A model generated the notes under the pieces. That model made no database searches and was not told where the DNA came from. It saw nothing but the letters and a program-made list of their open reading frames with translations. From Halopenitus persicus (lineage in GTDB: Archaea; Halobacteriota; Halobacteria; Halobacteriales; Haloferacaceae), in assembly GCF_900107205.1 (NCBI RefSeq), contig NZ_FNPC01000014.1, positions 1-40,000 on the forward strand: a stretch of 40,000 bases of DNA, given 5' to 3'. The position numbers were made by a program, and so were the translations under genes. Positions within the stretch are counted from its first letter, which is position 1. Every line of letters starts with the position of its first letter. Shown here piece by piece: positions 11,276 through 30,631 of the stretch.

Positions 11276-11296
11276 ACTCGAAGAATACCCAGGGAA

Positions 11297-12115: not shown

Positions 12116-12357
12116 ATACGATATGTACTGAATGAAGACCAATCACCGATGCTGAATCGGAGCATAATATCGAATTCAGTGTTCGACGTGGTAGACGGTG
12201 AAAAATAGATAAATGAACTCGAAACTACAGGCTGGTTAAATAACAGATTAGTATTGTCGAGATAGATTTATTTCTACTCTCGTTGACGGAATACGATCTC
12301 AGATATTCTAGTCGGGAAAAGATATAAGTCGCAGCTGAGCTTATCGCAGCTCGTTAT

Positions 12358-13392: not shown

Positions 13393-14282
13393 GTGACGAA
13401 CGCCCCACCGTTCGACCAGTTAACCTCGGTCGACTGGTCGAACTAACCCACTTGTGTCGAAACGACGCGCAGTCGACGGATGACATCGTTGATGCACTCG
13501 ACGTGAGTAAACGGCGTGCACGAGAGACCATCCTCGAATCGACGCGAATCAGTCTCGTTGAAGAAATATCTAACAAGGAAACCTACTCGACAACGACCGT
13601 CGGTGAGCGCTTTATCGATGCCGTTGAATCGAGCGATTGGGAGAAAGTGAACTCGGTTTTGAAAACACACAGTCCACACTACGGCGAATTTCTCAGTCTA
13701 TTCGAAGATGGCAGCACCGTCGAACCGGACGCAGCGCTCGAACTACTTGAAAACCAAGCCGAGTTCACCCCTTACGAGTATAACGAAACATCGTTGGACG
13801 TCATCGGGGCCTGGGCGCAACGCCTCGGCGCTATCCAGAGAAATGCGTTCGATGGTACCTTCTACGCAGTCAAAAAACGCGATGTGCCGCCAAACTTCCC
13901 GTACGCGTTGCTGTCCGTTGCTGACAGTCTTGAGGAAAGTGCTGGTGTGAATCTGAAGAAACGGTATCTCTCGATCCCGGAACTTCGTGAACATACCTGT
14001 GAGTGTCTCAGTTGTGACCGTGCTACGTTCGATGAAGGCCTGCGGACGCTCGCACAACAAAACATCGGTCGGATAGAACTTTCCGGAGCACCCATCGACA
14101 CCGGCGCGAAGGAAGCACGATACGGACTCAAAACGATCGAACTAGCCGACGAGGACGGCGAACTCGTCTCAACCGATCAGTCTTCAGAGCAAGTGATGCG
14201 TGGTGTCGAGCAGCTCGGTAAACAATACTATTACCTCGCGGTGTACGACCGTGAACTCCAATTCAACAATAATGACAACTGA
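13389..14282 (+). CDS. hypothetical protein with an N-terminal winged-helix-like domain
   Basis: LVELTHLCRNDAQSTDDIVDALDVSKRRARETILESTRISLVEE resembles a wHTH. It overlaps both neighbouring genes. Confidence 0.6.
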   Translation: MSDERPTVRPVNLGRLVELTHLCRNDAQSTDDIVDALDVSKRRARETILESTRISLVEEISNKETYSTTTVGERFIDAVESSDWEKVNSVLKTHSPHYGEFLSLFEDGSTVEPDAALELLENQAEFTPYEYNETSLDVIGAWAQRLGAIQRNAFDGTFYAVKKRDVPPNFPYALLSVADSLEESAGVNLKKRYLSIPELREHTCECLSCDRATFDEGLRTLAQQNIGRIELSGAPIDTGAKEARYGLKTIELADEDGELVSTDQSSEQVMRGVEQLGKQYYYLAVYDRELQFNNNDN

Positions 14283-15429
14283 CAAATTCGAAATTACAGA
14301 CGAACAGCGCGACTACTCATCCCTGGGTCTCAACGAAAACCCGTTCCCCTACAGTCCAGTACCCTCAGACAACCCAGAGGTTTACTGTGGACAAGATCAC
14401 GTAGCGAACGCAGTAAGCAATACCGTGTCATCGGTACTCAGTACCGGGAAATCGAAGCACCTCGTCATAACCGGAAAGTACGGAAACGGGAAATCCCATA
14501 CCCTCAAATACGCACGCTCGCTCGTCCGTGACCGCGAAGACGTTCTCGTTGGATACGTCGCTCAGCCCGGAGAAGGGTTCCTCGACGTCTATCACGAGTT
14601 TATGTACGACCTCGGCTTCGATCGTGTGCAGGAACTCGCATATGAATTCCTTGCTCACGTCGCCCGAGAGCACACCGAAACGAATCCGATGGGGGCACTA
14701 TCGATGAAGTCGCTGCTCGATGAGGGAGAAACTCTGCTCTCAGAACTTGTCCCAAAGGCCATCCAACAACTGAGTGATGTCACGAAGTTCGCTGATTTCG
14801 CTCGGGCGATCGTACATATGGTGTACGAGGACACGAACCTCTACGCGTGGCAGTGGCTCACCGCGGAGGGCATTCGGTACGAACAGCGCAAGGAGATGGA
14901 GATTCACAGCGCGCTTGACGACGACACGATGGGTGTACGGGCGTTTACTGCGCTCAAGAATATGCTCCTCGAACTCGGATACACCGGCGTGTTCGTCTTC
15001 GTGGATGAGTTCGAGAGCGTGGCGCGGCTCTCCCCGAAGAACGAACAGGCGACGCTCAACAGTCTACGGCATTTGATGGATCAGAACAGTGCCGGACTCA
15101 GTATGATGTTCGGATGTGCTCCGGAAGTCTGGCAGGACATTATGAGCGAGTACCACGCGTTCTCCGAACGGATCGGTCGAGAAGTCTCCCTCCGACCGAT
15201 GACAGAGGACCACTTGAAAGACCTCGTCGATTCTTATCTTGACCTTGCGTCCGGTGAGGGGGTTTCAGTGTCCGATATTTTCGAGGAAGACAGCCTCCAA
15301 TTGATTTTGCAGAGTTCACAAGGGAACGTACGACAGGCACTTTCTATCTGCAGCTACACAATTGATGATGCAGCCAGACGAGGGCGGGCAAACATCGACG
15401 CAGAAATCATTCAAGAAGCCATCTCCTAA
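14272..15429 (+). CDS. P-loop NTPase (AAA/Orc1-like) with an N-terminal NPF motif
   Basis: The ATG at 14272 overlaps the upstream stop by 11 nt. LNENPFPY; Walker A GKYGNGKSH (14473-14496); Walker B VFVFVDEFE (14989-15015); C-terminal helical lid. Confidence 0.8.
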   Translation: MTTDKFEITDEQRDYSSLGLNENPFPYSPVPSDNPEVYCGQDHVANAVSNTVSSVLSTGKSKHLVITGKYGNGKSHTLKYARSLVRDREDVLVGYVAQPGEGFLDVYHEFMYDLGFDRVQELAYEFLAHVAREHTETNPMGALSMKSLLDEGETLLSELVPKAIQQLSDVTKFADFARAIVHMVYEDTNLYAWQWLTAEGIRYEQRKEMEIHSALDDDTMGVRAFTALKNMLLELGYTGVFVFVDEFESVARLSPKNEQATLNSLRHLMDQNSAGLSMMFGCAPEVWQDIMSEYHAFSERIGREVSLRPMTEDHLKDLVDSYLDLASGEGVSVSDIFEEDSLQLILQSSQGNVRQALSICSYTIDDAARRGRANIDAEIIQEAIS

Positions 15430-15671: not shown

Positions 15672-15842
15672 TCAACCGAGTATTTTCACAACTGTCGCAG
15701 GCTTCCCCAGGACGACGACGTTCTCAGGGATATCTTCGGTAACGACGGCAACTGATGCGATTGTAGAGTTGTTACCAATTGTTACGTCGGGATTGATGTA
15801 CGCTCGCACTTGAGAGATACTAGTAACTGCTCCGAAAATCAT
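15672..15842 (-). pseudogene. C-terminal fragment of a hexapeptide-repeat (LbH) acetyltransferase
   Basis: The minus-strand translation gives ...[48 protein letters not shown], the typical end of a left-handed beta-helix acyltransferase. No N-terminal body is present. Confidence 0.5.
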
Positions 15843-15973
15843 ACTTGGAGTACTGAGGCTGATATTTCCAAGTACAAAAATATAAAAACTGAATTTAGCT
15901 ATACGGCATAGTGATATGAATACTGGACTCCGCGTTGAAAAATATTATATCCGGTGCCGGTGTTGAGACGGTA

Positions 15974-16165
15974 ATGTCAGAGCTTGCACGTGAGTATGGG
16001 GTTCTTCCAGAAGCTACTGAGGAAAGTAAATATTTGTCCGAGCAACTTTCCCGACTTCATATCATATTTGACTACCTCATAAATATGTCAAATGAAATTA
16101 ATGGAGATCCGTCCTCTGATGAACAAGATACTTCTAATACCTCAAACCCATGTCAAAATTTATGA
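15974..16165 (+). CDS. hypothetical small protein (doubtful)
   Basis: AT-rich ORF; an internal ATG gives MSELAREYGVLPEATEESKYL.... No recognisable family. Confidence 0.2.
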   Translation: MSELAREYGVLPEATEESKYLSEQLSRLHIIFDYLINMSNEINGDPSSDEQDTSNTSNPCQNL

Positions 16166-16211: not shown

Positions 16212-17009
16212 GTGGGAGGATTCCAACTCGTGACCTTACAGTACTCACGATTCTACCAACTGTACGCAGCAGTCCAGTTGGTTGCAAATGACGAAGCGTA
16301 CACTAAAGAGTCGCTGCGTGAAGCTCTGGTCGCACGGAAAGATCTTGATGCGAACCTCCCAGACTCGGAGGAAGGCGCCAAAGATGTCATCGAAGAGTTG
16401 GGAAATGCCCTACTTATTCAGGAAGCTGATGGTCATATCAAGTTAACATCGGAGGCTGAACTCCCTCAGAATTCGAGGTTGCTATTCTCCGGAAAGGCAG
16501 TAAGTGAGTCGATTTATGCCGCCGACGACACCGAAGCGTATGATCGAATGTTAACGAACCTCACTTATGCCCATCCGGAACTTCTCAACATCGCAAAGGA
16601 GGTCTATCGAAACAAGCCGCTAGAAAAATTTGAGATAAAGCGGGCGATAGCCGGGAACGATCCATTCGGAAACAAACTCAATGATTTCACTATCGATATA
16701 GGTGTAGAACTCTTATCAGATGCGGACGTGATACGGAAGAGTGACCGCGGATACACCGATGGCCGGTGTCCGATTACCCTACTCGCACATCTCATCTATG
16801 AAGAGTACGAAGCAATCGCTTCCGGTGATGAGAATGGCGTCTCCGAGCAAGAACTCTTTGAACGTATCGAACTGATGTACGGTATCGAGAAGTCGACATT
16901 CGAGAACCATCTGTCCCGACTCCAGCGTCACGGGTTCGTCACACCCGGGAGCTACGGCGAAATCACCTTCGACAAGGACGCATTCAACGCAGCTCGTATC
17001 CATGAGTAA
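16212..17009 (+). CDS. hypothetical protein, first gene of the five-gene operon (wHTH-like ends)
   Basis: GTG start (an alternative GTG is at 16230). The C-terminus SEQELFERIELMYGIEKSTFENHLSRLQRHGFVTP resembles a wHTH. Its stop (17007-17009) overlaps the ATG at 17002 of the next gene. Confidence 0.6.
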   Translation: MGGFQLVTLQYSRFYQLYAAVQLVANDEAYTKESLREALVARKDLDANLPDSEEGAKDVIEELGNALLIQEADGHIKLTSEAELPQNSRLLFSGKAVSESIYAADDTEAYDRMLTNLTYAHPELLNIAKEVYRNKPLEKFEIKRAIAGNDPFGNKLNDFTIDIGVELLSDADVIRKSDRGYTDGRCPITLLAHLIYEEYEAIASGDENGVSEQELFERIELMYGIEKSTFENHLSRLQRHGFVTPGSYGEITFDKDAFNAARIHE

Positions 17010-20000
17010 GTACGACAAGTTCGACCTCAACACGAATCCCTTCGAGCGAACGATTGCGAACGAAGAAACCGCTCGAACGTACCGTATTGTCGGCCGCGAC
17101 GACCAGGAAGCCCGACTTGAAGAGTTCGTCCAAGATGCTCTCCAGCATCCAGAGAATATGAGTCGGTCGCTGGTGTTTGGAGACTACGGTACTGGGAAGA
17201 GTCACCATCTCATCCAGCTCCGGGACGACCTGAAGGATGGGATCGAAATCGATGGTGCAACCCATCACGCAATCGGGGTCTACGTTGGCAACCTTGGGTT
17301 GAGTATCAGGTCGCTTTACATAGAGATCATCGAAGAGGTACTCGATTTCGCTCCGGAACTGGAGGATTTCGTAGAAGGACTGAAACCAGTGGAGCCGGAG
17401 TCAAGCGTCGAAGAGACGTTCGAGGTCGAGCAATTGATGAAGAACGTCGCTACGAACCTCCGAAAATTGTCCCAGGAGGCGACGACGGAGTATGATTACA
17501 ACAGTATCTTTATTTTTATCGACGAGGCTGAGGACATAGTCAATGCTGAGGAATCGAAAGTAAAAGACTTCGTCAGGTCGTTCCTCCACGTTGTTAACGA
17601 ACTGAGCGCAGCTCGAATCCACATCCTACTGGGTTTCTCACAGAAGGCGAAAACTCGCATTACGGGGTACGACGAGGAGGGAAGCCAACCGCTCGGGAAC
17701 GCACTCTTCCAGCGCTTCGCACAACGACAGGCGATTCAACTCGGTAACCTTCGAAAAGGGGATGTGGAAGAGATGTTGATCGATCGTCTTGATCAGCACC
17801 GCTCTACTAACAAGGGGAAACTCTACCCCATCGTCGAAGAGACGATCGGAGTAATAAAGTCTCTCACCAACGGGCATCCCCGAGAAATATTGTCAATATA
17901 CGCGTCTGCTCTCCAGTATGCCGCCGAGGCAGACCTGGACGCGGTCAACGGTGACGCCGTATTCTATGCGATTCGCGGGTTCGACTCGCTGGTCCGAGAT
18001 GAACAGATCCTTTCGACGACGTCCCTGAGCAATTTCGAGCAGGGTCTTCGGGACTTTGATACGGACGCGGCGAACGACTTCGAGAACCTTCGGGGTCGTC
18101 TTATTGGGGAAGATGCCCGTGTCCCGCAGGATGGGTTCACGACCGACCCGGAGGAGTTACTCCAGCCGATTTCGATAAGTAGCGATACGGATATCCGGGT
18201 TCTCGAACGTATCAACGAGGACGGGCGGTACTTCTATCAACTCCACGAAGAGGCGAAGGACTTCCTCTTTGGCTCGACCGGTGGCGAAGGAACTCTCATC
18301 GCCGACCTCGACATCCATGCGACGACTGCGCCAATAAAGTACCAATCATCTATGTCCCGTGGATTTGCACTCGCGTTACGGGAGGCCGACTACGCGACGA
18401 CGTTCCCCGATCCGGTCGGGGTCGAATACGAGGACTATCAACTCGAATCGTGGCTCGTCGAGTACCACGTTGGCGAGGGCTACCGGAGGCCCACGGTAGC
18501 ACTCGCGGTTTACAATGGACCGGAACTTCCGAAGGAAATCGCCGAGCTCTTCATCAAAACCATCGAGCAGAAGGGAGCTTCCTTCGGAATTCTACTCAAG
18601 CAGGGTCAGGGTAAATCGGCTGAACTGAACAAGTATCTGAGTGAGTTGGAGGGACTGAAGAGCGACTACTACAGGGAACGGGTCCTCCAGATCGACTTGA
18701 CGGAGAAGCAGCGCGAGGAGTCTGCGTATGGTAAACTTCTAGGTCTGGGCAAATCTGACGTGGAATTCGACGACGACGCGTTCGAAGTCGACGAACTCGT
18801 GGAGTCACTCGGCGTGAACGACCGGCTCGTCGAGGCGATTCAGGAGTCGGTACTCCCGTATCCGGGATCGATCGGACGACGCGTCATTGAGGAGATGGAG
18901 CGCAACCAGCAGAAGGACTTCACGATAACAGGCCTCCGCGAACAACTCGACCTCCAGCAGTACGACCTCCGCAGCGAGACGATGATCGGCTATCTGAAGC
19001 AGGGCCTGGTCTCAAAGGACGGTCAGAACTGGACGTACCCGGATGTCGAGGACGATCGGCCACCATGGTACCACGTCTATGCGATTCTGAAGGACAAGGA
19101 CCCGCTCACGCGCGACGAACTCCAGTTCGAAGTCGAACAGCGCTTCGTTCTCGGTTGCAACGAAGGCGAGGAAGCCGAGATGCTTCAGTGGTATCTCAAC
19201 CGACTCCGCATCGCTGGCTACGTCGAACAGGAGAAAGGTCCTGCCGGAGAGGGGATGAAATACGATGTCGTGAGTGTCGCAGATCAGGTCGACGAGACGG
19301 TTTTACAGGCGAGAGACCGATTGGAAGATGCGAGAGAGACCTACGAGGAAGCGCAGGAACTGAACATCACCGAACTGAACGAGTACAACAACCAGCTTGA
19401 CGATGTCGAAACAACGATTACCGACGTCGATGGGTCACTTAACCCGGATTCGGGCGATCTTTCTCGATTGAAAGATGCTCTCGGCAAAGCCGAGACGGTT
19501 CGTGACGAACTCCAAGATGAAATCGACGCAGGTCACGAGCAGTTGGAGGGCGAAGTAGAGAACCTCGCCATCCAGGCGGATGAACTCGAAGAGAGATTAG
19601 AGGAGATCAAGCAGGAGGAGGTCCACGTTGACGACTTCGATACCTGGCACGAAGAACTCTCCACACTGCTAGAGGATCTCCGAGAGCTCGTCGAGGACGA
19701 TGAGTATTCACTACTGGCCGACCGTGTGGAAGAGGTTGGAGAACGCCTCGATGAAATTGACGAGGAACTAGAGGAGATAGCCGGTGCGAAACAGCAGTGT
19801 GTCAAGGCGTATCAACACGCCCAGGATTTGAAAGAGGAAGCAGCCGATGCTATTGCGGACATCAGTACGGATAACGACCAGCAGGAGGTACTTCAGCAGG
19901 AACTCAACGGTTTCGAGGAGGTGTTAGAAGCTTACGATAAGTATTACAGCGCAACACAGTACAAAGAGGCCCTGACGTACCTCAACGATCACCTACCAGA

Positions 20001-20373
20001 ACTTGAGGACACCGCGGACCGTGCCCAGAAGATCTCTAGTCGACAGAACCGCTTGAACAACAACCTAGATAGTATCGAGTCCGACGTCAAGAAAGAGGGC
20101 GACGACGACCTGCTCGAACAGTTCCGTGACGCCCGTGAGAACGTGGCTCGCGGCCAGTTCGCTGAAGCCGAACAACAACTCGGGGACATCCAGGACAGAC
20201 TGGAGGGCCCAACACCCGAGGAACGGTTCAGAAATGCCGTCGAGGAACACGACGGGCGGTTATCGAAGGTCGTCGATGCGACCGATTTCAGTTGGGATGA
20301 GACGTTCAAATGGGCGTACCAGCTGTACAATAACGGTGAATTCAACGACATCCACCTGGTGAACGACAAATGA
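17002..20373 (+). CDS. large P-loop ATPase with an NPF N-terminus and a long acidic coiled-coil C-terminal region
   Basis: LNTNPFE; Walker A GDYGTGKSH (17179-17202); Walker B IFIFIDEAED (17512-17526). About 300 aa are E/D/L/Q-rich heptad-like sequence (roughly 19280-20180). 1123 aa. Confidence 0.85.
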   Translation: MSKYDKFDLNTNPFERTIANEETARTYRIVGRDDQEARLEEFVQDALQHPENMSRSLVFGDYGTGKSHHLIQLRDDLKDGIEIDGATHHAIGVYVGNLGLSIRSLYIEIIEEVLDFAPELEDFVEGLKPVEPESSVEETFEVEQLMKNVATNLRKLSQEATTEYDYNSIFIFIDEAEDIVNAEESKVKDFVRSFLHVVNELSAARIHILLGFSQKAKTRITGYDEEGSQPLGNALFQRFAQRQAIQLGNLRKGDVEEMLIDRLDQHRSTNKGKLYPIVEETIGVIKSLTNGHPREILSIYASALQYAAEADLDAVNGDAVFYAIRGFDSLVRDEQILSTTSLSNFEQGLRDFDTDAANDFENLRGRLIGEDARVPQDGFTTDPEELLQPISISSDTDIRVLERINEDGRYFYQLHEEAKDFLFGSTGGEGTLIADLDIHATTAPIKYQSSMSRGFALALREADYATTFPDPVGVEYEDYQLESWLVEYHVGEGYRRPTVALAVYNGPELPKEIAELFIKTIEQKGASFGILLKQGQGKSAELNKYLSELEGLKSDYYRERVLQIDLTEKQREESAYGKLLGLGKSDVEFDDDAFEVDELVESLGVNDRLVEAIQESVLPYPGSIGRRVIEEMERNQQKDFTITGLREQLDLQQYDLRSETMIGYLKQGLVSKDGQNWTYPDVEDDRPPWYHVYAILKDKDPLTRDELQFEVEQRFVLGCNEGEEAEMLQWYLNRLRIAGYVEQEKGPAGEGMKYDVVSVADQVDETVLQARDRLEDARETYEEAQELNITELNEYNNQLDDVETTITDVDGSLNPDSGDLSRLKDALGKAETVRDELQDEIDAGHEQLEGEVENLAIQADELEERLEEIKQEEVHVDDFDTWHEELSTLLEDLRELVEDDEYSLLADRVEEVGERLDEIDEELEEIAGAKQQCVKAYQHAQDLKEEAADAIADISTDNDQQEVLQQELNGFEEVLEAYDKYYSATQYKEALTYLNDHLPELEDTADRAQKISSRQNRLNNNLDSIESDVKKEGDDDLLEQFRDARENVARGQFAEAEQQLGDIQDRLEGPTPEERFRNAVEEHDGRLSKVVDATDFSWDETFKWAYQLYNNGEFNDIHLVNDK

Positions 20374-23105
20374 GCCGAACACAGATGGACGGCCGGGACG
20401 ACCTCAAGACCCTCCAGGCCGTCTGGAACCAACTCCCCCAAGAGTTCAAGACGGAGTTGCAGCAGCGGCTGCTTAGGGCAATCGACGACCGCTGCAAGCG
20501 ACAGATCAACTCCGGCAACTACGACGCCACCGTGGCGCTCGGGGAACTGTACGAGGACTTCGTCGGTACCATAGCCGATGACGACCGGTTCTCTGACGCG
20601 GTCCCGCGCAAGGTCGGAGAGGACCACGCGAGCCACCTCGTCTTCCAGCGTCTCGTTGACGAACTCGAAGGGCGGAACACGATTTTGTACGTCTACGACC
20701 GCCAACGTGTCCGGAGCCGTGTCGCAGAAGTTACGCGGTACTTCGCGTTGCTACGGCAGCGATTCGTCGGTGAGGAGTACGACTTCACTCCGAGCCTAAC
20801 GAAGATGGTGAAGATGGACATTCAGTCCCGGGAGAAGCCGAAGTGGGGAGAGGACGGGAAGCGTATCAACTCCATCGTCCGCGACATCTACCAAGAGGTC
20901 AAAATCTCCGAACCGGCCGCTGAGTTCCAAGAGGCATTCGACTCCACCGGCGACTGGCAGGATGCCATAGAAACGTCACTGACGCTGGTCAGAGAGCTCT
21001 GCCACGAACTGGGGATGAAAGGACTCGCCAAATACCAGGGCCGTGCCTTCGAGCGGCTCTACCTCCAGAGCGTCACCGACGACAACGACGGAACAGCTCG
21101 CGTTGTCACCGCTAGTACTGGGGGCGGCAAGACAGAAGCGTTCCTGTTTCCCCTACTCACATATGCCTTGACCGCGTCACAGGCGAATCTGAACGGAGCG
21201 CGAGCCCTGCTGGCATATCCACGTACCGACCTCTGTGACAACCAATTCGAGCGAGTGGTTCACTATCTCTACACCATCGGCGAACTCATCGAGGACGACG
21301 AGTCATCACCATTCAACCAGTTCCCACTCTCGGTGAATCTGCAACACAGCAGCAGCGGGAAAGTCGAGATAGACTGTCCGGAGTGTGGCGGCCGGATGTC
21401 GGCGGAGGAGGACTTCGAGTGCTCTGAAAACCCAGATCACGTCATTGACTACGTCTCCACCGGAAACCGGGCTCAGGCTGATATCTTCATCACAACGCCG
21501 GACACTCTCCATCGACGACTTATGGACCCGTACGGGCAGAACCAGTTCTGGAAGCGAGGCTACCCGCCGAAGTTCGTCGTCCTCGATGAGGTCCACGTCT
21601 ACACCGACCAGTACGGGATGCACGTTGCTAACCTGATGCGTCGGCTGAAGGCGACGATGAGGGCAGTCGCAGAAGAACAGGATCCCGTTCTCGTGGCATC
21701 GAGTGCGACGATTTCGAACGCCGAAGACTTCACCAAGCGAATTTTCGACGCTCCCCGTGCAGAGCAGATCAAACCGTACTCGAAGAAAGACATCGAGGAG
21801 ATGGACGAGAGCCGTAGCGAGGGCCTCGAACCGGAACTTGAGGAGATTGGCTGGGAGTACCTCGTCTTCGTCAAATCGACGGAGCCCAGAACCGTCCAGA
21901 TTCCACAGGGCGACGACGTTTACAAGCCTCGCTCCGAGTGGGAGGAGTTCGACGAGACGAACGTGACCAACCTTTCGACGATGATCCAGGTCGCGTTTGC
22001 GTTCTACCACACGATCCTGAAGGAGCGACCCGAAGATGACGACACGAAGGACAAGATCCTCGGCTTCGTCGATTCGATCGACTCCGTCAAACGCCTAGGC
22101 GACTACATCCACGACGCCGAGGGAGCTGGAGGAAACGATGACGCCGGGCTCTACTCACTCAGGAAGCCAGACGCCTTCCTCCCTGAAACAGAACAAACGA
22201 ACCCCGACTGTCCGAAAGACCTGTTCAGAGGGTCGGCAGCCGACCACGAGACCGCAGTATGTGAACCACTCCCTCCGAATCCAGAACTGAACCCCTGTCC
22301 AGTGTACGAGGCCGGTGAGTGCTGGTGGACGCTGCAGGACGACTTTCTCGAATCGATGGATGTCTATCTGCATAAGAGCGGTCGGACTGAAACTCCCGAC
22401 GGAAGCCGTGTCAACGACGACGAGTGGGATATGATGGTCACGACCAGCGCGTTAGAGGTTGGGTTCGACCATCCGAGTATCATCGGGACATTCCAGTACC
22501 GGGCGCCAATGAACATCCCCGGTTTCGTCCAGCGGAAAGGTCGTGGCGGACGGGACCCGGGCGATCAACCGGTTTCGGTCGTCGTCCTCGGGACGTTCCC
22601 GGAGGATTCGTTCTACTTCCACCACGAAGAGCTCTTGAGCAATCCGAGCGACGAATACCTGAAGATTTCACTTGACGAGGAGAACGAGTTCGTTAGGACC
22701 CAGCACGTCGTCTCAGCGATCTTCGATTACGTCAACGTTCGGCATCAGGACGTCTCGGACGAGATCTACAGGCGATTGGAGATACCGGAGTTGATTCGCA
22801 TCCTTGAGGACGACCGTGACGAGATAGAGAGGTGGCTAGATGAAGCGTTCCAATCGGCGGACCCCGACTTCCTTGAGGGGGTCCTAGACGACCTGACTGA
22901 TTACGTCGGGCTGACCGAGATGGCGCTGGCTCCGCACGACCAGTTGGAGGAGGCCGGTGGATTCGAGAAGTTCTGGGAAGCGCTTCGGATCGAATCCGGT
23001 ACGAAGTCGAAGCAGATTGAACGAGAGAAAGAACAGTTGCAGAAGCTCCTGACGCAGTTCGAGATACTTCAGGGTGTGAATGCGGCCGGAGGTACTGACG
23101 AATGA
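20370..23105 (+). CDS. DEAD/DEAH-box (DEVH) SF2 helicase, YprA/MrfA/DrmA-like
   Basis: Motif I ASTGGGKTEAF (21111-21134); motif II VVLDEVHVY (DEVH at 21585-21596); motif III SSATISN; motif V TTSALEVGFD; motif VI QRKGRGGR (22530-22553), followed by VVVLGTFPEDSFYFHH. A zinc-ribbon insert CPECG...C..NPDH lies at 21375-21440. ATGA overlaps at both ends. Confidence 0.9.
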   Translation: MSRTQMDGRDDLKTLQAVWNQLPQEFKTELQQRLLRAIDDRCKRQINSGNYDATVALGELYEDFVGTIADDDRFSDAVPRKVGEDHASHLVFQRLVDELEGRNTILYVYDRQRVRSRVAEVTRYFALLRQRFVGEEYDFTPSLTKMVKMDIQSREKPKWGEDGKRINSIVRDIYQEVKISEPAAEFQEAFDSTGDWQDAIETSLTLVRELCHELGMKGLAKYQGRAFERLYLQSVTDDNDGTARVVTASTGGGKTEAFLFPLLTYALTASQANLNGARALLAYPRTDLCDNQFERVVHYLYTIGELIEDDESSPFNQFPLSVNLQHSSSGKVEIDCPECGGRMSAEEDFECSENPDHVIDYVSTGNRAQADIFITTPDTLHRRLMDPYGQNQFWKRGYPPKFVVLDEVHVYTDQYGMHVANLMRRLKATMRAVAEEQDPVLVASSATISNAEDFTKRIFDAPRAEQIKPYSKKDIEEMDESRSEGLEPELEEIGWEYLVFVKSTEPRTVQIPQGDDVYKPRSEWEEFDETNVTNLSTMIQVAFAFYHTILKERPEDDDTKDKILGFVDSIDSVKRLGDYIHDAEGAGGNDDAGLYSLRKPDAFLPETEQTNPDCPKDLFRGSAADHETAVCEPLPPNPELNPCPVYEAGECWWTLQDDFLESMDVYLHKSGRTETPDGSRVNDDEWDMMVTTSALEVGFDHPSIIGTFQYRAPMNIPGFVQRKGRGGRDPGDQPVSVVVLGTFPEDSFYFHHEELLSNPSDEYLKISLDEENEFVRTQHVVSAIFDYVNVRHQDVSDEIYRRLEIPELIRILEDDRDEIERWLDEAFQSADPDFLEGVLDDLTDYVGLTEMALAPHDQLEEAGGFEKFWEALRIESGTKSKQIEREKEQLQKLLTQFEILQGVNAAGGTDE

Positions 23106-25207
23106 GTGGGGACGAGAAAAAACGGCATCAGCGGAAACTGGGTGACAGAATCAAATCCATCGTTCGGTTCTACGACGATCTCGCAGAGCGAACCAGATAC
23201 GGGCCTGTTCAGCCCTACTGCCACGTTCCAGACCTGTTCGAGGTGGACCCCGAAGCGGAACGCCCCCTCACAGTTCCTGGGACGTTCATCTCCGAGCAGG
23301 TCGGCGGCAACATCCCCGTCACAGCAGACGAGGGGGGGCTGCTCGACTCGGAGCCCCTCGACCTGATGCTCTCGTACTACCTCCCTGGTGGTTACAAACG
23401 GCGATGGGACTTCGAGATGTGGACCGGAGACTTCGCTGCCTCGCAACGCGACGGCTACGTGGACGTCACGTCTGGCTTCGAGTTCCGCCAGGACTACCCT
23501 CTCGAAGAGGTGCTCTCTTTGACGGACTCGGAGGAGTACACACCGTTCGGGTACGAAACGGACGAGGTCGGTCTCTATGTACCCGAGGAGATCTACGTAA
23601 AGCAGCCAGCGTCCCCGCGTTACTTCTTCGACACCGTTCACAAGCACGTACTGAACTACAATCCCGACACCGTTCCAGACGAAGACGTTATCGACCTCGG
23701 AATGAGCGACCCGAGCTCGAACTTTCTCTGGTTCAAACACCTTCACCGACTCGGTGGAGACATCGAAAGATTCGACATCGAGGAGGAGGGCGAACTGTTC
23801 AGTCGGATCGTCTTCTCCGACGAGTCCGTCTTCCTGAAGTGTTACTACGCGACGGTCCTCACTTTGTATCGGCAGGACCAGCGGACATTCTCCGATGTCG
23901 TCCGGTACTTCAATGACCGTAGCGGTCGGGTCGCCTTCGTGACGAGTGAGGAGAAGAGCCAGGTGCTCCTCTTCGACATTCCTCGTGAATGGGTCGAAAA
24001 ATCGGTCAGTAGGCAACTGGACTCGAACGAGTCACTGCGGCGTGACCTCGGGTTCGCACAACTGTATCGGGAGCTCTGGGACGACCTCTTCTTCACCGAC
24101 CGGACGATACAGAACGTCTACGGCGTCGATCCAGTCTTCCGATCCCTTCAGGCTGCGGACTACTGGATTCGGACCTCAGACGAGAGTCCCAATTCTGTGT
24201 TCGAGGCATCGGTCAACGAGATTTGCGGAGTTCTCGACAAGGTAATTCCGGAATCAGGTCCGAGCAGACTTCGGCTGATGGGATACGACAGCGACCAGCG
24301 CGAGGATCTGAAGGATCTTTTCCGGGACAACTCGGAAGAACTACGCGAGGTTCTGGAGAACTGTGCGTCGATAGAAAACCAGCGGACGTTCACCGAGCAG
24401 GTCCTCGTTCACTCCCTGCAGAACGCCGTCGCAGGATGGGCCGTGGCGGCGGGACTTGGCGGAAGCGACTTCGAAACCTGGTACGACGCGAACTACCAGA
24501 GCAAGGACATCGACGTCGTACAGTTAGCGCTCTACGACACGATTCAGGGCGGCGCCGGGACGAGCAAAGAGGTCTTCAAACGGCTCAAGGATGGATCACT
24601 CGACATCTCCGGCCCGCTCTCTAACCAGTGTTCCTGCCACATCTCGCTCGCGGAGGACCTCGTGCTCTCGCTGCTCGCCGAGCGCGACGCGTCCGTTCTC
24701 TACGACATCTACACGCAGGGCGACGGCGAAGACGACGAGATTCAGCGGGATCTCTTCGACCTCGCAGTCGCTACCGCGTCAGATATCGACAGAGCCAAGC
24801 TCGTTGACGAGGAGGAGGTCATCACCGTATTCAATCGTCGGATTGCCTCGCTGTACGAGACGAAAGAACTTGCACGCTTCTACGGCGCGGTCGCCCGGGC
24901 GTACCACCGCATAGCGTCCGAACTGAATCGGACACCGACTGCGATGGACGTTGTCCTCGGTCTCGAAGAAGAGACGTTTATCGATTCCCGGGTGAGAAAC
25001 ACCTACGAACGGTTCGCCAACCGTGGCTCCCAGCGTAGGGACCTGAGCGAACTTGCCGACCGCGTCGAGGAGATCACAAAGCAGTGCATCAGAGCCTGTC
25101 CGGACTGTCTCGAACGACAGGACTCTATGTACGCGTATCGCTACCAGAACCAGATGCTCGACAAACGCCTCTTGCAGGCGTCGCTTTCCGAGGTGATTGA
25201 AGTATGA
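23102..25207 (+). CDS. DUF1998 (MrfA Zn-binding, DrmB-like) domain protein
   Basis: The C-terminal third contains HSLQNAV...LALYDTIQGGAGTS (24530-24559) and Cys pairs C510-x-C512 and CIRACPDCL (25085-25108), followed by NQMLDKRLL. This matches the DUF1998 pattern. The N-terminal ~470 aa are unassigned. Confidence 0.7.
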   Translation: MSGDEKKRHQRKLGDRIKSIVRFYDDLAERTRYGPVQPYCHVPDLFEVDPEAERPLTVPGTFISEQVGGNIPVTADEGGLLDSEPLDLMLSYYLPGGYKRRWDFEMWTGDFAASQRDGYVDVTSGFEFRQDYPLEEVLSLTDSEEYTPFGYETDEVGLYVPEEIYVKQPASPRYFFDTVHKHVLNYNPDTVPDEDVIDLGMSDPSSNFLWFKHLHRLGGDIERFDIEEEGELFSRIVFSDESVFLKCYYATVLTLYRQDQRTFSDVVRYFNDRSGRVAFVTSEEKSQVLLFDIPREWVEKSVSRQLDSNESLRRDLGFAQLYRELWDDLFFTDRTIQNVYGVDPVFRSLQAADYWIRTSDESPNSVFEASVNEICGVLDKVIPESGPSRLRLMGYDSDQREDLKDLFRDNSEELREVLENCASIENQRTFTEQVLVHSLQNAVAGWAVAAGLGGSDFETWYDANYQSKDIDVVQLALYDTIQGGAGTSKEVFKRLKDGSLDISGPLSNQCSCHISLAEDLVLSLLAERDASVLYDIYTQGDGEDDEIQRDLFDLAVATASDIDRAKLVDEEEVITVFNRRIASLYETKELARFYGAVARAYHRIASELNRTPTAMDVVLGLEEETFIDSRVRNTYERFANRGSQRRDLSELADRVEEITKQCIRACPDCLERQDSMYAYRYQNQMLDKRLLQASLSEVIEV

Positions 25208-28200
25208 TTGTCTCGCTGTACGACGTCGTCCACAACGCCGAGAAGTACGCAATAACAGACCTTTCCAAGGAAGAGCAAGCGTTCAAGGATAAGGAACTCA
25301 CCGTCCGATGTGAAGTCACCGGGATTCCATCGACCGGAACTGCAGGGGGTGAGAAGACTCTCTACCCGGTCGACGACCCGACGACTCAGCTCCAAGACGA
25401 AGTACTGCTATCATTCTGGCACGAGGACTCCAACTGGGGCCGGCTTGAGGAGACCGACAACGCGGTTCAGACCTTCGTCGACACGTCGCCGCTCCAGCGT
25501 GGGGAGGAGTTGCTCGTGCGGGCGATTCCTGTCCATCGAGAGGGCAAGTGGTACCTCAACGTGACGTCGCTGTTCGTCCGCAACCCTGACATAACCATTG
25601 GGAAGAGCGAGATGCGGTCGGCCAACGAATGTCCCCGAATCTACGACCTACGATACCGGAAGAACGTTTTCAACCCGAACCGGTACGACATCTCGAAGGG
25701 CGCCGTCAAGGGCAGCATCGCTCACCGGGCACTGGAACGCGCGATAGACGACTCCGAGTTCGCCGCGAACTTCGAGTCGGGATGGACGGACGACGATGTC
25801 GAGGAACTCATGGACGCCGTCGTGGATGAGAGCTTCTCGATGGAGATGACGCTGTGCCGCCTCGCCTGGGTGAGCCCCAACGACATCAAGGAGTTTGCCG
25901 AAAACTCGGTTCTCAACCTTCTCCAGGACGCTGGGTTCACGAAACTCGTTCGGGGAACCGAAACCCTGGAAACTGAACGAACGATCGCCGACTCGTACGG
26001 CTTGAACGGCCGCGTCGACCTGATGATCGACGGTAGTCCGCTCGACCTCAAGACGAACTTCTTCCTCGAAGACGGGATGAAACAGCGGCACAGGTTCCAA
26101 CTTCGCCTGTACTTATTCGGGGTCCTGCTGGAGAACCTGGACCAGGGAATGAATCTCGGCAAGGTGTTGGACGAACTCCCGCCGGGCGTGATTATCTACC
26201 CCAATCTGCAAGATGAGTCGGAACCGGTGTACGAACGGGTAGAACTAGAGCACCACCACATCGAGGAGATCATGCAACTCCGGAACCAGGCGGCGACGCT
26301 CCGGGATTCCTTCGCCGTGCCGACGACGTATGACAGGGACTGTTCTGGCTGCTACTTTAAGGACGAAGACACGATCGGTAGCGGTGCAGGCGCAGGCCAG
26401 AGGCTGCCGTCCGCCTGCAAGTTCCACTGCCAGTCGGAACGCCGGTGGGCCTGCCACGAAACGAACGACGAGGGCGAGGTGAAGACCGAGTGTCCCTTGT
26501 ATCACGAGTGCGACCAGCGCCTGGAGTACCGCAATCCGAGCGTCACGGACCACTATAACCAGCTTAGGTCGGCTCTCCAGGATGAGAAGCGAGCCAGGAA
26601 GGATGCCGGCAAGACGATGGCCCGGATGACTGACGAGGTCCTAGAGAACGCAGGGATGCAGCTTTCCGGGCTTTCCTTCGAGGAGGAACTCTCAACCCGG
26701 CGGATGCTCTATTCCGGCGAGTCGGTTCGCCTGTTCGAACCCGGGACCCCAGTACGAATCGTCCCAGAAGACGAAGATACACACATCGTGGCGACCTACT
26801 GTGGTACCCAGGAAGGGGGTTATGTCTTCGAGTTCGACGGGTCGCCCCCGACTGACTTCAAACGGTTCAATGTCACGTACCGAGCCACGAGAGCGGTCGA
26901 ATCGACGTCGCTCCCTCGCCGATTGCTCTCGGAGCTCGATTACGCACAACGGATCGGAATCGACCCCCGTCTCCGAGAGTCAGGAGAGATCTCCCCAAGT
27001 CCGGAGCGAATTGCTCCTGACGCAGTCGAAAAGATTGCGGACTACCTAGACAACCGGCAGGTATTCGTTAACCTCCCGGCGCGAGTCAGTCGCTCCGAGA
27101 AACTCACCCAACTCGTTCGTGAGGTCACGCAGTCCCCTCTCCAGTCGCTTGACGGAGACTGGGTGCCTGACGACGACCGCCGGGTGCTCGTGCTCGGGGC
27201 TCGGCTCCCCGAGCTAGACTCCGTGGCCGACCATCTTGTCGACGGAGATGATATCATCCGTGTCGACGGATTCGGTGACGCGAAGAACGCATACGGCCCG
27301 ACCAGCAACTCGCACAGGCTCTACGAAGCAATTCGGGACTCCAACGTCATCGTCTCCTCGGCCCAGTACGCGCTGCAGGAAGGTGTCTTCCATTCGATGA
27401 CATCGGGTGATGAATCGGCTCGGCCTCATTCGAGCCGCTTCTTCGATGCAATCGTGATACTTGGTGCTGAGACCCTGACGGAACCCGAGTACGTCTTCCT
27501 CCGTGACCTCGCCGACCGAACTGTCGCCGTCGGAGAAGTCAACCGGGAGAGTCCCGAGATGGTCAGCGAAGAGGCTCGGGAGAAGGGACTCGCTGAGTCC
27601 TACTACGTTAACGCGTACAAGCGCTTCAGCACGATTTCGAGTGAATCTGCCGAGTCGATTTTCATCGAGGGGGAGGCCTCGACGCCAGTCGCCGAGTTCT
27701 TCAAACCGCTGGACATCGAGCTTGATGGGATCGGCGGCTCCGCGTCGTTCCACCACGTCTCGGGAGAGGAGCAACGAGCAGAGGAATATATGACTATTGA
27801 GCGGCGAATTCATACGGTAGGCGAGACCGACGAGCCACGGGATATCCTCCTCAAAGCGCTCGATCGAGGTGACGCTCTTTACGTCGCGTCCCAACTCGAC
27901 GATCTGAACGCACTCGATGCAACCGACCTCAGAGTGGGACAGACCTACACGTTCGGCGAGGCCCGGTTCCGAGTCGAAAACAATGACGTCGCCCCCGACC
28001 GCGATATGGGCCACGTGGTCACCGTCGACATCAACCTCTCCCAGACGCCATACTTCACCCGGCGACTCATCTTGAACCCGCTGGAAGCGCAGGAAGTCGC
28101 TAATCTCACAGCCGAACAGGAGCCTTCGCTCGTCGTCACTCCCTTCGAAGCGCAAGCCGTATCCATCAGCACGGAACTGGAGGACCGAGGGATTGACGTG

Positions 28201-28413
28201 CCGGTGGTCACTCCCGACGCCCTCGAAGGAGACATCGTAGAAGATGTAATCGTGAGCCTCACAGTGGCCAACGACGAAGAAATCGTCCGGCCACCGGTGA
28301 ATAACATCGAGACACTGTACACCTTGCTAACGGCTGGTGAGTCCGTCACTGTCGTTGGGGACGAAGCGACGCTCAAGCGAAATACACTAACCGAACGCCT
28401 CACCGACTTGTAA
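25204..28413 (+). CDS. multidomain protein: N-terminal OB-like region, Cas4/RecB-type PD-(D/E)XK Fe-S nuclease, and a degenerate Upf1/Dna2-like SF1 helicase core
   Basis: Nuclease motifs: ECPRIY, GSIAHRALE, GRVDLMIDGSPLDLKT, QLRLYLFGV, and C380-x2-C383...C405 (about 25606-26433). The helicase C-terminal signature is VVTPFEAQAVSI...VVTPDALEGDIVEDVIVSL...VTVVGDEATL (28120-28410). The Walker A slot reads VLVLGARLPEL (27184-27216) and the Walker B slot FDAIVILGAE (27442-27471). Confidence 0.8.
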   Translation: MIVSLYDVVHNAEKYAITDLSKEEQAFKDKELTVRCEVTGIPSTGTAGGEKTLYPVDDPTTQLQDEVLLSFWHEDSNWGRLEETDNAVQTFVDTSPLQRGEELLVRAIPVHREGKWYLNVTSLFVRNPDITIGKSEMRSANECPRIYDLRYRKNVFNPNRYDISKGAVKGSIAHRALERAIDDSEFAANFESGWTDDDVEELMDAVVDESFSMEMTLCRLAWVSPNDIKEFAENSVLNLLQDAGFTKLVRGTETLETERTIADSYGLNGRVDLMIDGSPLDLKTNFFLEDGMKQRHRFQLRLYLFGVLLENLDQGMNLGKVLDELPPGVIIYPNLQDESEPVYERVELEHHHIEEIMQLRNQAATLRDSFAVPTTYDRDCSGCYFKDEDTIGSGAGAGQRLPSACKFHCQSERRWACHETNDEGEVKTECPLYHECDQRLEYRNPSVTDHYNQLRSALQDEKRARKDAGKTMARMTDEVLENAGMQLSGLSFEEELSTRRMLYSGESVRLFEPGTPVRIVPEDEDTHIVATYCGTQEGGYVFEFDGSPPTDFKRFNVTYRATRAVESTSLPRRLLSELDYAQRIGIDPRLRESGEISPSPERIAPDAVEKIADYLDNRQVFVNLPARVSRSEKLTQLVREVTQSPLQSLDGDWVPDDDRRVLVLGARLPELDSVADHLVDGDDIIRVDGFGDAKNAYGPTSNSHRLYEAIRDSNVIVSSAQYALQEGVFHSMTSGDESARPHSSRFFDAIVILGAETLTEPEYVFLRDLADRTVAVGEVNRESPEMVSEEAREKGLAESYYVNAYKRFSTISSESAESIFIEGEASTPVAEFFKPLDIELDGIGGSASFHHVSGEEQRAEEYMTIERRIHTVGETDEPRDILLKALDRGDALYVASQLDDLNALDATDLRVGQTYTFGEARFRVENNDVAPDRDMGHVVTVDINLSQTPYFTRRLILNPLEAQEVANLTAEQEPSLVVTPFEAQAVSISTELEDRGIDVPVVTPDALEGDIVEDVIVSLTVANDEEIVRPPVNNIETLYTLLTAGESVTVVGDEATLKRNTLTERLTDL

Positions 28414-28807: not shown

Positions 28808-29974
28808 TCAGTTATTGGATGCGTCTTCAGTAAGAATTCCTGCACTCCGAAATGCGGCCATCAACGAGCCGAATTTCTTCACATAGGCTCTGTGGGAGAA
28901 CCGTGTTCTGTCGTTGATTTCGGTCTCATTAGGGAGTCTACCCAACTCCTGAGTCAGCGCGACTAACTCGATGATAAGTTCTCGTTTGTCCCAGTCGAAT
29001 TCCTCCTCATAGGTATTGGAAGTCGGTCGTAATTCGGAGGACTCCAGCGAGTCTTGGGATACTGATTCGGCGTCCGTCTGAGTTGAGGCTTCGTTTTGAT
29101 TACTGGGTTTGGGTTCCACCCACTCCAGGACCACGTCGAGCTGGTCCTCAATCACATCCTGAATAGAGGGATCTTCGTAACGAGCGTATTCCAAGAGGTC
29201 GAAAAGGATCAGCGAGAGGCTCTGGTAGAAACCCATCCCTCCAACTTCTTTGGTATGCTCGCCCGCAAATGCATCCACTTTCTCACGAGGCGTGGTATCA
29301 TCGATACCTTTCCGTCGCGCATAGGCGTTTTCTGCTTCAGCGAGACGGCGCCGGACGCTCTCGTACTTCTCAGTGTCTGAAACAAGAGGGAGAGGTCCGA
29401 GGGCTGTCTCTACGTACCGGCGCTCGAATTCGGTGATGAAGTCGAAGGTGTCGTCCGGGTCGAGATCCCAGTAGTTCGCAATGACCCACGCGTAGTCTTC
29501 ATCAATCTCTGTGACTTTATTGGCAGGAATCCACTCGGTGACGTCAAGTCGATCGACGAGTAGATCGTTCCAGCGCAAAAGCGAGCAACTCAGCGTCGGA
29601 TCCATCACCCGAGCAAAGTACGGAATCGATTCGAGAGAGTAGACAAGAGCGGGTCCGTCGATGTCTTTGGCTCGCAGGACCGCGCTGTACTCGTCAAGCA
29701 GTTTCTCGAACCGTCGGTGTCGGTGTTTGTTGATGGCGTTCCGAACGTACTTTTCACGTACACCGATTTCGCCGGCGAGTTCGGAGACCGTATATCGACT
29801 GTTTTGGAGTCGGTCGAAGATGGCGGTAGTGAACGGTTTATCGAGAACCCTAATCGGCGCTCCGTACTCAGGGATTTCACGCACAGGATTCTGGTCGAGG
29901 ATCACCCTCCGCTCATCGACCAGTTTCCGTTGTTCTTCCTGAGAGAGTGCGTAGAATTCCTCGCTCGATACCAT
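28808..29974 (-). CDS. HTH protein with a C-terminal homing-endonuclease-associated repeat
   Basis: HTH: YTVSELAGEIGVREKYVRNAINK. The C-terminal ELIIELVALTQELGRLPNETEINDRTRFSHRAYVKKFGSLMAAFRSAGI matches the repeat commonly found with haloarchaeal HNH proteins. Confidence 0.7.
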   Translation of the reverse strand: MVSSEEFYALSQEEQRKLVDERRVILDQNPVREIPEYGAPIRVLDKPFTTAIFDRLQNSRYTVSELAGEIGVREKYVRNAINKHRHRRFEKLLDEYSAVLRAKDIDGPALVYSLESIPYFARVMDPTLSCSLLRWNDLLVDRLDVTEWIPANKVTEIDEDYAWVIANYWDLDPDDTFDFITEFERRYVETALGPLPLVSDTEKYESVRRRLAEAENAYARRKGIDDTTPREKVDAFAGEHTKEVGGMGFYQSLSLILFDLLEYARYEDPSIQDVIEDQLDVVLEWVEPKPSNQNEASTQTDAESVSQDSLESSELRPTSNTYEEEFDWDKRELIIELVALTQELGRLPNETEINDRTRFSHRAYVKKFGSLMAAFRSAGILTEDASNN

Positions 29975-30036
29975 CTATTCGGTATCTAATGGTAGAGCGT
30001 CTTTTCAGTTTGGGTAGTACTCCCCGATGACCGGTG

Positions 30037-30631
30037 TCATTCCAGAACCTGATTGACGAAGTCGGGGGGATATCGTTCTCACAGTTGTCTACTGCTTGGT
30101 CTAGAACTCGAATACACACGGACAGTATCTGTCGGATATTCCCTTGCGAACGTTGTAGAATAAGTTCTACAACCTCTTCTGAGAATAGCTTCCTCCCTGT
30201 CGTTGACCCGGTACGTTGTTTGCCTAGGTACGCTTCAATAAGTTGGTTGACATCGTCAACTGTCAGAGGGCTGAGTACAATTTCTTGACCTATTCTCTCA
30301 GAGGAGGCGTGGTATTTACTCATCACGTCCTGCCAGACCTCGGGAGCACACCCAAAGAGTATGTAAAGCCCCGATAGTTCTGATCCATTAGGTGCCGGAT
30401 GGTGTTCAACGTAGACAGATCGTCTTTCGGAGAATCTTGTAGTCACTCCCACTGGGATTCACGCTGTCTGATGGCACGGGCGTTGACCATCGCGGTCTGC
30501 AAATCATAGATGCTGTCCACATATTCTGGGGTATTGTCGCTCGACCGCTTCCCGATGTTCCGGACCGAGAGTAGGATAAGGATGTTGAGTGCTCCGTGGG
30601 GTGTCTAGAGCGTCCGTTGTCGGTACAGCAT
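30037..30631 (-). pseudogene. decayed second copy of the TGT-like/ATPase module (deletion fusion)
   Basis: The minus-strand reading MLYRQRTL*TPHGALNILILLSVRNIGKRSSDNTPEYVDSIYDLQTAMVNARAIRQRESQW parallels residues 1-61 of the 12358 gene, with an in-frame TAG at 30605-30607. It then joins directly to ...SPKDDLSTLNTIRHLMDQN / GLYILFGCAPEVWQDVMSKYHASSERIG..., which parallels the C-terminal third of the 14272 ATPase. A 1-nt deletion lies between about 30355 and 30385. A second frame change sits at the G6 run at 30064-30069. Confidence 0.8.

Follow-up and report, generated by a model that had tools for sequence, protein, structure and literature searches.

Do five overlapping genes in the haloarchaeon Halopenitus persicus form the effector half of a defense system and, if so, of what kind? 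The genes, here called g1 to g5, lie in the first 40,000 nucleotides of contig NZ_FNPC01000014.1 (assembly GCF_900107205.1, forward strand); this whole 40-kb stretch is referred to below as the window. An open reading frame (ORF) scan reproduced exactly the five ORFs and the overlaps of 8, 4, 4, and 4 nt described in an earlier, sequence-only reading of this DNA, which had also proposed that they are the effector half of a defense system. That proposal was supported by the linkage of the operon to genes for preQ0 synthesis, TGT/DpdA-family proteins, and DpdC-like proteins in almost every locus with enough flanking sequence. We conclude that g1 to g5 and a sixth gene, g6, probably serve as the effector (restriction) module in a restriction-modification system that is Dpd-like and relies on 7-deazaguanine in DNA. 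This function was inferred from sequence and genomic context only.

Inspection of the junction sequences showed that g1 and g2 overlap by 8 nt (ATGAGTAA) and that the g2/g3, g3/g4, and g4/g5 junctions are three 4-nt ATGA overlaps. The same ordered array recurs in approximately 30 loci, from Halobacteria to Methanosarcina, with 24–57% identity; because the order is conserved in so many loci, we take g1 to g5 to be genuine genes, not chance ORFs. Genes in the Methanosarcina locus overlap by 8, 1, 11, and 1 nt, with one gap of 111 nt, so that the tight coupling itself was kept. The conserved overlaps make a single transcript with balanced stoichiometry plausible. The start of g1 is probably the GTG at 16230, giving a protein of 259 aa, because its homologs begin at the position equivalent to MTLQY. 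The module was read at first as a unit of five genes; we found it to consist of six, with g6 as a conserved partner (Table 1). The g6 protein has a conserved N-terminal domain of approximately 300 aa, which in our own judgment looks like a winged helix, and a C-terminus that varies among homologs; here this part alone matches Pfam HNH_repeat (8e-10). Where the locus is low in GC, and also in Methanosarcina, the g6 homologs are co-directional with the operon and follow g5.

Seventy-nine loci were annotated with purpose-built hidden Markov models (HMMs) and showed three arrangements; the loci had been collected by scanning genomes and metagenomes (one scan each), by contig look-ups, and through plasmid matches. 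Type A has the arrangement of the window (g1-g2-g3-g4-g5 plus g6) and was found in approximately 30 loci: on haloarchaeal chromosomes, on a Halorientalis plasmid (Halorientalis litorea ZY14, NZ_CP095485.1), on approximately 18 low-GC metagenomic contigs, and on the chromosome of Methanosarcina sp. Mfa9. In Methanosarcina, the genes for a TGT, a winged-helix protein, and an ATPase and g1 through g6 form an array of nine co-directional genes, with DpdA adjoining. In type B, g1 and g2 are replaced by a 355- to 372-aa homolog of the g2 coiled-coil tail, and a divergent operon is added that encodes a true DpdH homolog (E 1.3e-13), small proteins, and an 1800-aa helicase with DruE1 as its best PADLOC match; type B is what Bell et al. 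described as BRIGADE Type I. The fused type (L020, L021, and L078) combines a g1-like gene and a g2-like gene with a helicase that is not split, a g5 homolog, and an additional protein of 955 aa. In L020 and L021 the 955-aa protein (10368-13235) lies between the g2-like ATPase and the helicase; it had no PADLOC match and no similarity to g2, DpdH, or DpdI.

The gene that ties the operon most directly to a named family is g3. Its motifs I (GGGKT), II (DEVH), III (SAT), and VI (QRKGRGGR) were invariant in 11 homologs, and it has two conserved zinc-binding inserts, C336/C339/C351/H357 in RecA1 and C614/C631/C643/C651 in RecA2. The closest solved relative was YprA/MrfA (6ZNP, 7e-17). In PADLOC, DpdJ was the best match (7.5e-59, versus 2.6e-21 for DrmA and 1e-14 for DruE), so that dpd, one of several families named in the sequence-only reading, proved to be the closest. 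Against the NCBIfam DpdJ model g3 scored 174 bits, with an equivalog cut-off of 800. Comparison with an alignment of three annotated canonical DpdJ proteins gave an hhalign probability of 100% and an E-value of 5.7e-58 over DpdJ residues 7–749. These matches would place g3 in the defense branch (DpdJ) of the YprA helicases, not in the repair branch, as judged from profile comparison.

The downstream protein, g4, which is 100% identical to a database protein of Halopenitus persicus, reached 23.8 bits with Pfam MZB/DUF1998 (cut-off 24.2), and its residues C512, C662, C666, and C669 were invariant in 22 sequences. Its profile had only a weak match in the PDB, to the DUF1998 region of MrfA (E 0.4), and no similarity to the C-terminus of canonical DpdJ was detectable by hhalign (E 0.18). 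The relationship between the two genes was apparent from L020, a soda-lake metagenome-assembled genome (MAG), which encodes one 1583-aa helicase; residues 36–880 match the g3 profile (4.5e-159) and residues 945–1564 match the g4 profile (3e-40; hhalign probability 99.8%). Because L020 carries both parts fused, we conclude that g3 and g4 are in all likelihood the two halves, separated by fission, of one DpdJ-type YprA DExH helicase, g3 being the N-terminal, helicase half and g4 the C-terminal half with a predicted four-Cys DUF1998 zinc site. The earlier view that helicase and DUF1998 module are on separate proteins was therefore correct; the split is real.

For g5, a fusion of nuclease and helicase had been proposed, and only the nuclease part of that proposal held. 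Pfam matches were to PDDEXK_1 (1.5e-12) and Dna2 (8e-6), and the profile matched mouse DNA2 (5EAW, 1.9e-8) and also Upf1, SMUBP-2, and Cas4. The nuclease core is of the RecB/Cas4 PD-(D/E)XK type (D272, D281-x-K283, Q299...Y303), and a conserved Cys cluster has eight invariant members (C143, C380, C383, C405, C409, C417, C430, and C436). The N-terminal domain looks to us like an OB fold. The C-terminal half aligns to the superfamily 1B (SF1B) helicase domains of mouse DNA2, Upf1, and SMUBP-2; however, the lysine of Walker A, the acidic pair of Walker B, and the arginine of motif VI were all missing from the 12 homologs aligned, and the DEASQ and RLNVALTRA motifs of DNA2 were replaced. Because the Walker A lysine is absent across the alignment and the DNA2 motifs are replaced, g5 is predicted to be a Dna2-like Fe-S nuclease whose SF1B helicase-like module is ATPase-dead. 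The order in g5, a RecB-type nuclease with a Cys cluster of the Fe-S type followed by an SF1B helicase, is also that of eukaryotic DNA2 and bacterial Bad. In contrast to DNA2 and Bad, g5 should be unable to act as an autonomous motor, because 12 of 12 homologs have lost the residues of Walker A, of Walker B, and of motif VI, and it is encoded next to a separate helicase with intact motifs.

The two remaining proteins, g1 and g2, appear to be partners. No match to g1 was found in Pfam, PADLOC, or NCBIfam. An AlphaFold2 (AF2) model (pLDDT 74, the predicted score in the local distance difference test) contains two helix-helix-helix-strand-strand winged-helix units, so that g1 is, on the model, a tandem winged-helix protein. 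Foldseek comparison of the g1 model with the PDB gave nothing below E 0.04, the top matches being multi-winged-helix proteins, BpuJI, SelB, and Hel308 among them. In g2, the Walker A (GDYGTGKSHH), Walker B (DEAE), and GHPR sensor motifs were invariant, and the AF2 model (pLDDT 84.8) shows the domains listed in Table 1. Foldseek matched the g2 model best to Cdc6 (1FNN, 3.8e-7), then to ORC1, RdrA, and an archaeal Walker ATPase, and also to TnsC and to the N-terminus of BrxC from Acinetobacter (9ZLL, 1.9e-4) over 500–590 columns. A profile of g2 residues 1–755, searched against 1.84 billion representatives, retrieved three tiers: approximately 11 full-length clusters, proteins of approximately 915 aa, and hundreds of ATPases of approximately 400 aa with PF10923 (BrxC_BrxD). 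From these motifs and profiles we predict that g2 is an AAA+ ATPase that is ORC/Cdc6-like, belongs to the BrxC/BrxD family, and is catalytically intact, with g1 as its probable winged-helix partner.

The window holds a second pair of this kind. Three overlapping genes (12358-15429) encode a short TGT-family transglycosylase, a 297-aa protein, and a BrxD-like ATPase. The BrxD-like ATPase is among the PF10923 relatives of g2 (BLASTP 1e-5) and aligned with the g2 N-terminus with an hhalign probability of 99.1% (E 5.7e-19). The 297-aa protein aligned with g1 over 190 columns (probability 94%, E 1.2e-7), consistent with g1 being its distant paralog. We regard g1-g2 as a paralog of the two genes behind the upstream TGT gene; in Halobacteria as well as in Methanosarcina, this TGT-winged helix-ATPase cassette and g1-g6 are linked. 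The statement in the sequence-only reading that no other BREX genes are present has to be amended, since one member of the BrxC_BrxD family lies just upstream of the operon.

The coiled-coil tail of g2 is likely to be a separable module. The C-terminal 360 aa matched a free-standing protein of BRIGADE Type I (hhalign probability 98.1%, E 6.8e-14); of 107 controls, made up of shuffled or reversed sequences and unrelated coiled coils, not one matched. In the BRIGADE Type I loci the gene for this separate protein overlaps g3 by 4 nt, and the AAA+ part is replaced, which favors the tail as the probable connection to g3-g5. Homology of g2 to the DpdH-like ATPase of BRIGADE Type I was considered and rejected, both BLASTP and hhalign being negative.

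With Cdc6/ORC as the best structural match of g2 and the resemblance of g5 to DNA2, the operon could also be read as a module that a plasmid or integrated element uses for replication, repair, or maintenance, made up of an ORC-like ATPase, a helicase, and a Dna2-like nuclease. The Halorientalis copy, on a plasmid near Cdc6 and PolB genes, would fit. We regard this as highly improbable, because the Methanosarcina array is chromosomal, among housekeeping genes, the neighboring replication genes are not conserved across loci, g3 groups with DpdJ, and the helicase module of g5 lacks its ATPase motifs.

The genes around the operon favor a role in restriction. The Dpd-type modification features present are DpdA with its catalytic Asp, DpdC, and QueC/QueD/QueE. 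Both TGT paralogs, of 344 and 734 aa, keep the equivalents of the catalytic DpdA residues Asp95 and Asp256. Both paralogs are conserved in type A loci, and there may be two distinct activities of insertion or two contexts that are targeted. A type IV-like nuclease, dependent on modification and directed against viral DNA that contains 7-deazaguanine, with the local TGT genes serving another purpose, would be expected to be self-toxic in an island with a complete preQ0 pathway and two TGTs with intact Asp residues; moreover, Dpd, the closest characterized relative, restricts unmodified DNA (PMC10164549). Haloarchaeal tailed viruses and many phages, which are reported to carry DpdA and deazaguanine-modified genomes, would be targets for such a nuclease, yet we think it very unlikely that this is the function of the module.

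Canonical Dpd clusters for comparison were taken from three bacterial plasmids; their gene order is dpdE-F-G-H-(I)-J-K-D. The systems of Salmonella Montevideo and Enterobacter pPOL9A share the logic of the window, which is preQ0 synthesis, DpdA, and DpdC combined with a multi-gene restriction block. The restriction blocks have a parallel order, in which a small protein, a P-loop ATPase of approximately 1100 aa, a YprA helicase, and a nuclease correspond to g1, g2, g3/g4, and g5. Only the helicase half, g3 with DpdJ, was detectably homologous. Canonical DpdJ has lost the four-Cys DUF1998 site, whereas the split helicase keeps it in g4, and the canonical nuclease is a PLD protein, whereas g5 is of the Dna2-like PD-(D/E)XK type. 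A DpdB (ParB-like) protein was not found in the window; the DpdB-type partner is replaced by the second TGT paralog and the BrxD-type ATPase. No ORFs for DpdE, DpdF, or DpdD were present in the window, the only DpdF matches being weak ones to the helicase motifs of g3, and a PLD HMM found no DpdK-type protein in the window or in the type A loci.

Orthology of g1, g2, and g5 to DpdG/I, DpdH, and DpdK/D, respectively, was tried with PADLOC, NCBIfam, and hhalign (single sequences and three-sequence alignments), and a P-loop-level match was the most that was obtained. In PADLOC and NCBIfam, g1 and g2 had no DpdG, DpdH, or DpdI match. By hhalign, g1 gave E-values of 0.05–0.3 with DpdG and DpdI, the g2 N-terminus matched DpdH with a probability of 74% over 133 P-loop columns only, and g5 had no similarity to DpdD or DpdK.

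BRIGADE is a predicted system of haloarchaea (bioRxiv 10.1101/2025.09.15.676423); its defining feature is an ARMADA-like YprA helicase in which RecA1 and RecA2 have large inserts between them. Its Type I has the same g3-g4-g5 core of split DpdJ-like helicase and Dna2-like nuclease (32–48% identity) and the same linkage to 7-deazaguanine genes, including the TGT-winged helix-BrxD-like cassette, and it has a homolog of the g2 coiled-coil tail as a separate protein. The ARMADA-like helicase shares its operon with small proteins and an ATPase that is DpdH-like; in the example L026 it is 1854 aa long, with DruE1 as its best PADLOC match (1.4e-47). In place of this set, type A has g1, full-length g2, and g6, and it also occurs outside the halophiles, in Methanosarcina. 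Two HMMs, that of g3 and one for ARMADA-like helicases made with L026 and L027, recovered only g3, and no ARMADA-like helicase, from the window and from all type A loci; these two HMMs and tblastn do detect it in the BRIGADE loci. In the HMM annotation, the window and the approximately 30 type A loci likewise had no PLD, no DpdH homolog, and none of the small proteins. Orthologs of all five genes were not found in any one of the named systems, g3 to g5 being shared with BRIGADE Type I and only g3 with Dpd. With a core in common with BRIGADE Type I, type A is a Dpd-like arrangement that has no name of its own, and the BRIGADE preprint was the only description touching the module in the literature searched.

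The remaining named systems were less similar. In DISARM, too, the DUF1998 module is on a separate protein downstream of a YprA-family helicase (DrmA/DrmB), but the modification there is methylation, whereas the chemistry here would be base exchange, and DrmA scored far worse than DpdJ on g3. Pfam, PADLOC, and NCBIfam scans found no DrmMI, DrmMII, DrmC PLD, DrmD, or DrmE in the window. Druantia genes were also absent from the window; the DruE models match only approximately 60 residues around motif I of g3, and a DruC match on g2 is to the coiled coil only. Membership in DISARM or Druantia, for which the helicase-DUF1998 pair had been taken as a hallmark, can be dismissed on these grounds. The same applies to PbeABCD, which the sequence-only reading had also mentioned. 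In this haloarchaeal system PbeA is large and helicase-like, PbeB has 66 aa, PbeC is SMC-like, and PbeD has 152 aa, and the genes adjoin dndCDEA (PMC6459918), a different composition; its sole PADLOC match was PbeC (4.5e-4) in the g2 coiled coil, and no dnd genes were among the neighbors scanned. The resemblance of g2 to BrxC holds at the level of fold and superfamily. With BrxC/PglY and BrxD of BREX, g2 shares the AAA+ fold, the GxGKSH P-loop, and, by profile, the PF10923 superfamily; its winged-helix and coiled-coil C-terminal region is specific to the g2 family. PADLOC BrxC models did not match g2, and PglX, PglZ, BrxA, BrxB, and BrxL were not found in the window.

These features suggest how the module could work. 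Host DNA would be marked with preQ0 or its amide (ADG). A complex of g1 and g2 would load on DNA in the manner of ORC, BrxC, or DpdB and check for the mark. On unmarked DNA, the coiled-coil arm of g2 may hold or activate the g3/g4 motor, which would unwind or translocate the DNA and pass strands on to the nuclease, g5. For motor activity g5 would depend on g3/g4, since the helicase module within g5 appears to be dead. The paralogous cassette of TGT, g1-like protein, and BrxD-like ATPase would use the same ATP-driven engagement of DNA to install the mark, which parallels the need of bacterial DpdA for the DpdB ATPase; in Salmonella, where that need was found, dpdD-K give the restriction phenotype (PMC10164549).

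A more far-reaching reading, which we put forward tentatively as possible but somewhat doubtful, is that the locus is a distinct, self-contained 7-deazaguanine restriction-modification type of Halobacteria and Methanosarcina with a duplicated, shared recognition apparatus. It would consist of approximately 10 genes, namely those for DpdA, DpdC, the TGT, winged-helix protein, and BrxD-like ATPase, and g1-g6. The two paralogous winged-helix and AAA+ cassettes would be matched DNA-engagement engines, one driving base exchange by the TGT and the other licensing the split helicase and the ATPase-dead nuclease on unmodified DNA. If true, a recognition apparatus duplicated between modification and restriction would be a design undescribed for Dpd, BRIGADE, DISARM, or BREX.

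Several points weigh against a Dpd-like restriction module. Homology to DpdG, H, I, K, and D was not detectable for g1, g2, g4, g5, and g6, and the analogy with Dpd restriction draws on one helicase and on context. Docking on the coiled coil and the hand-off from helicase to nuclease are steps that we infer. The literature searched held no experiment on the BRIGADE or the type A arrangement and no report of 7-deazaguanine in the DNA of these archaea. One locus, L018, has the six genes and no modification gene within 10 kb. This locus would also fit a self-contained, modification-independent helicase-nuclease defense that senses free DNA ends or single-stranded DNA and is merely an island neighbor of the deazaguanine genes. 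Defense systems do cluster in islands, and the YprA-family helicases of DISARM and Druantia recognize single-stranded DNA or 5' overhangs, not a modification. Mere co-location is, however, hard to reconcile with the paralogy of g1-g2 to the TGT-attached pair. The TGT/DpdA/DpdC linkage survives from Halobacteria to Methanosarcina at 24–27% protein identity, and includes the co-directional nine-gene array and the fused-helicase relative in the soda-lake MAG. We therefore judge a self-contained defense unlikely and favor the Dpd-like restriction module.

The module also appears to be mobile. Six haloarchaeal copies in five genera, Haloterrigena, Halovenus, Halorubrum, Haloparvum, and Haloarcula, have 92–95% DNA identity (L005-L009, L015, L023 region), and the locus GC is 0.51–0.57; this identity across genera together with the GC points to very recent horizontal transfer between genera. 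The Halorientalis plasmid carries a complete type A island with identical protein lengths. Plasmid carriage, cross-genus identity, and GC are mobility features typical of defense islands.

Table 1. The g1-g6 module, the predicted domains of g2, and the linked genes of the window
Feature	Position	Strand	Size	Basis
g1	16212-17009	+	265 aa	ORF scan
g2	17002-20373	+	1123 aa	ORF scan
g2, AAA+ domain, ORC/Cdc6-like, BrxC/BrxD superfamily	residues 1-330			AF2 model
g2, winged-helix and alpha/beta domains	residues ~340-756			AF2 model
g2, coiled-coil arm	residues 759-1066		~300 residues	AF2 model
g2, small helical domain	C-terminal, after coiled coil			AF2 model
g3	20370-23105	+	911 aa	ORF scan
g4	23102-25207	+	701 aa	ORF scan
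g5	25204-28413	+	1069 aa	ORF scan
g6, sixth conserved partner	28808-29974	-		Homologs flank operon in all type A loci
QueC	9250-9939	-		Pfam QueC 5e-73
QueE-like radical SAM	10038-10814	-		Pfam Radical_SAM 1.4e-17
QueD/PTPS	10814-11437	-		Pfam PTPS 5e-20
YhhQ/Vut_1 transporter	11456-12115	+		Pfam Vut_1 1e-38
Short TGT-family transglycosylase	12358-13392	+	344 aa	Pfam TGT 1.4e-29
g1 paralog	13389-14282	+	297 aa	hhalign
BrxD-like AAA+ ATPase, paralog of g2 N-terminus	14200-15429	+	409 aa	PF10923 BrxC_BrxD 3.8e-17
BrxD-like ATPase, C-terminal fragment	29913-30452	-	179 aa	Purpose-built HMM, E 1.4e-41
DpdC-like DUF6884 protein	30703-31416	-		PADLOC DpdC 7e-10
Long DpdA	31413-33617	-	734 aa	PADLOC DpdA 1.7e-74

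The BrxD-like fragment downstream of g6 (Table 1) covers only positions 274–375 of the 386 of its HMM, the C-terminal third. Two other loci, L029 and L032, have an intact TGT-winged helix-ATPase cassette at this place, and because the window has only the fragment there we interpret the island as rearranged and the fragment as the likely remnant of a second cassette, the intact one lying upstream of g1. The 780-bp spacer between the BrxD-like ATPase and g1 contains a 56-aa ORF (15672-15842, -), probably a gene fragment, which by its translation resembles the C-terminus of a hexapeptide-repeat acetyltransferase. Directly upstream of g1, in an AT-rich stretch, is a 76-aa ORF (15935-16165, +) with no Pfam match.

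At the left end of the low-GC region are genes for a DUF7347/DUF7351 protein (1964-2851, -) and an M23 peptidase (3111-4250, -); neither recurs beside the operon in the other annotated loci. On the right, positions 35000-39300 have a strong positive GC skew (+0.17 to +0.26) and a GC content raised to 0.61–0.65. Five end-to-end ORFs on the + strand (35384-39042) may be another small operon; the last has RNase_H_2 (PF13482) and starts at a DIETTG motif, and the other four had no Pfam match. There were no tRNA genes in the window as island borders.

As far as we found, the consistent fission of the helicase with the DUF1998 site kept and the ATPase-dead Dna2-like nuclease are unreported, as are the duplicated winged-helix and AAA+ cassette, the modular coiled-coil tail, the sixth gene, and the occurrence in Methanosarcina. 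For Dpd in bacteria, only the modification half has been reconstituted so far. The archaeal variant would be simpler on the restriction side, with one active helicase, one nuclease, and one AAA+ ATPase and without DpdD, E, F, and K. Its modular parts, namely the separable tail, the split or fused helicase, and the motorless nuclease, offer a tractable route to the coupling of YprA helicase and nuclease, and to how 7-deazaguanine in DNA is read. The type A loci extend the range of Dpd-like systems beyond the "halophile-only" BRIGADE and, on the literature searched, would give archaea, a methanogen among them, their first cellular deazaguanine-DNA system for study.

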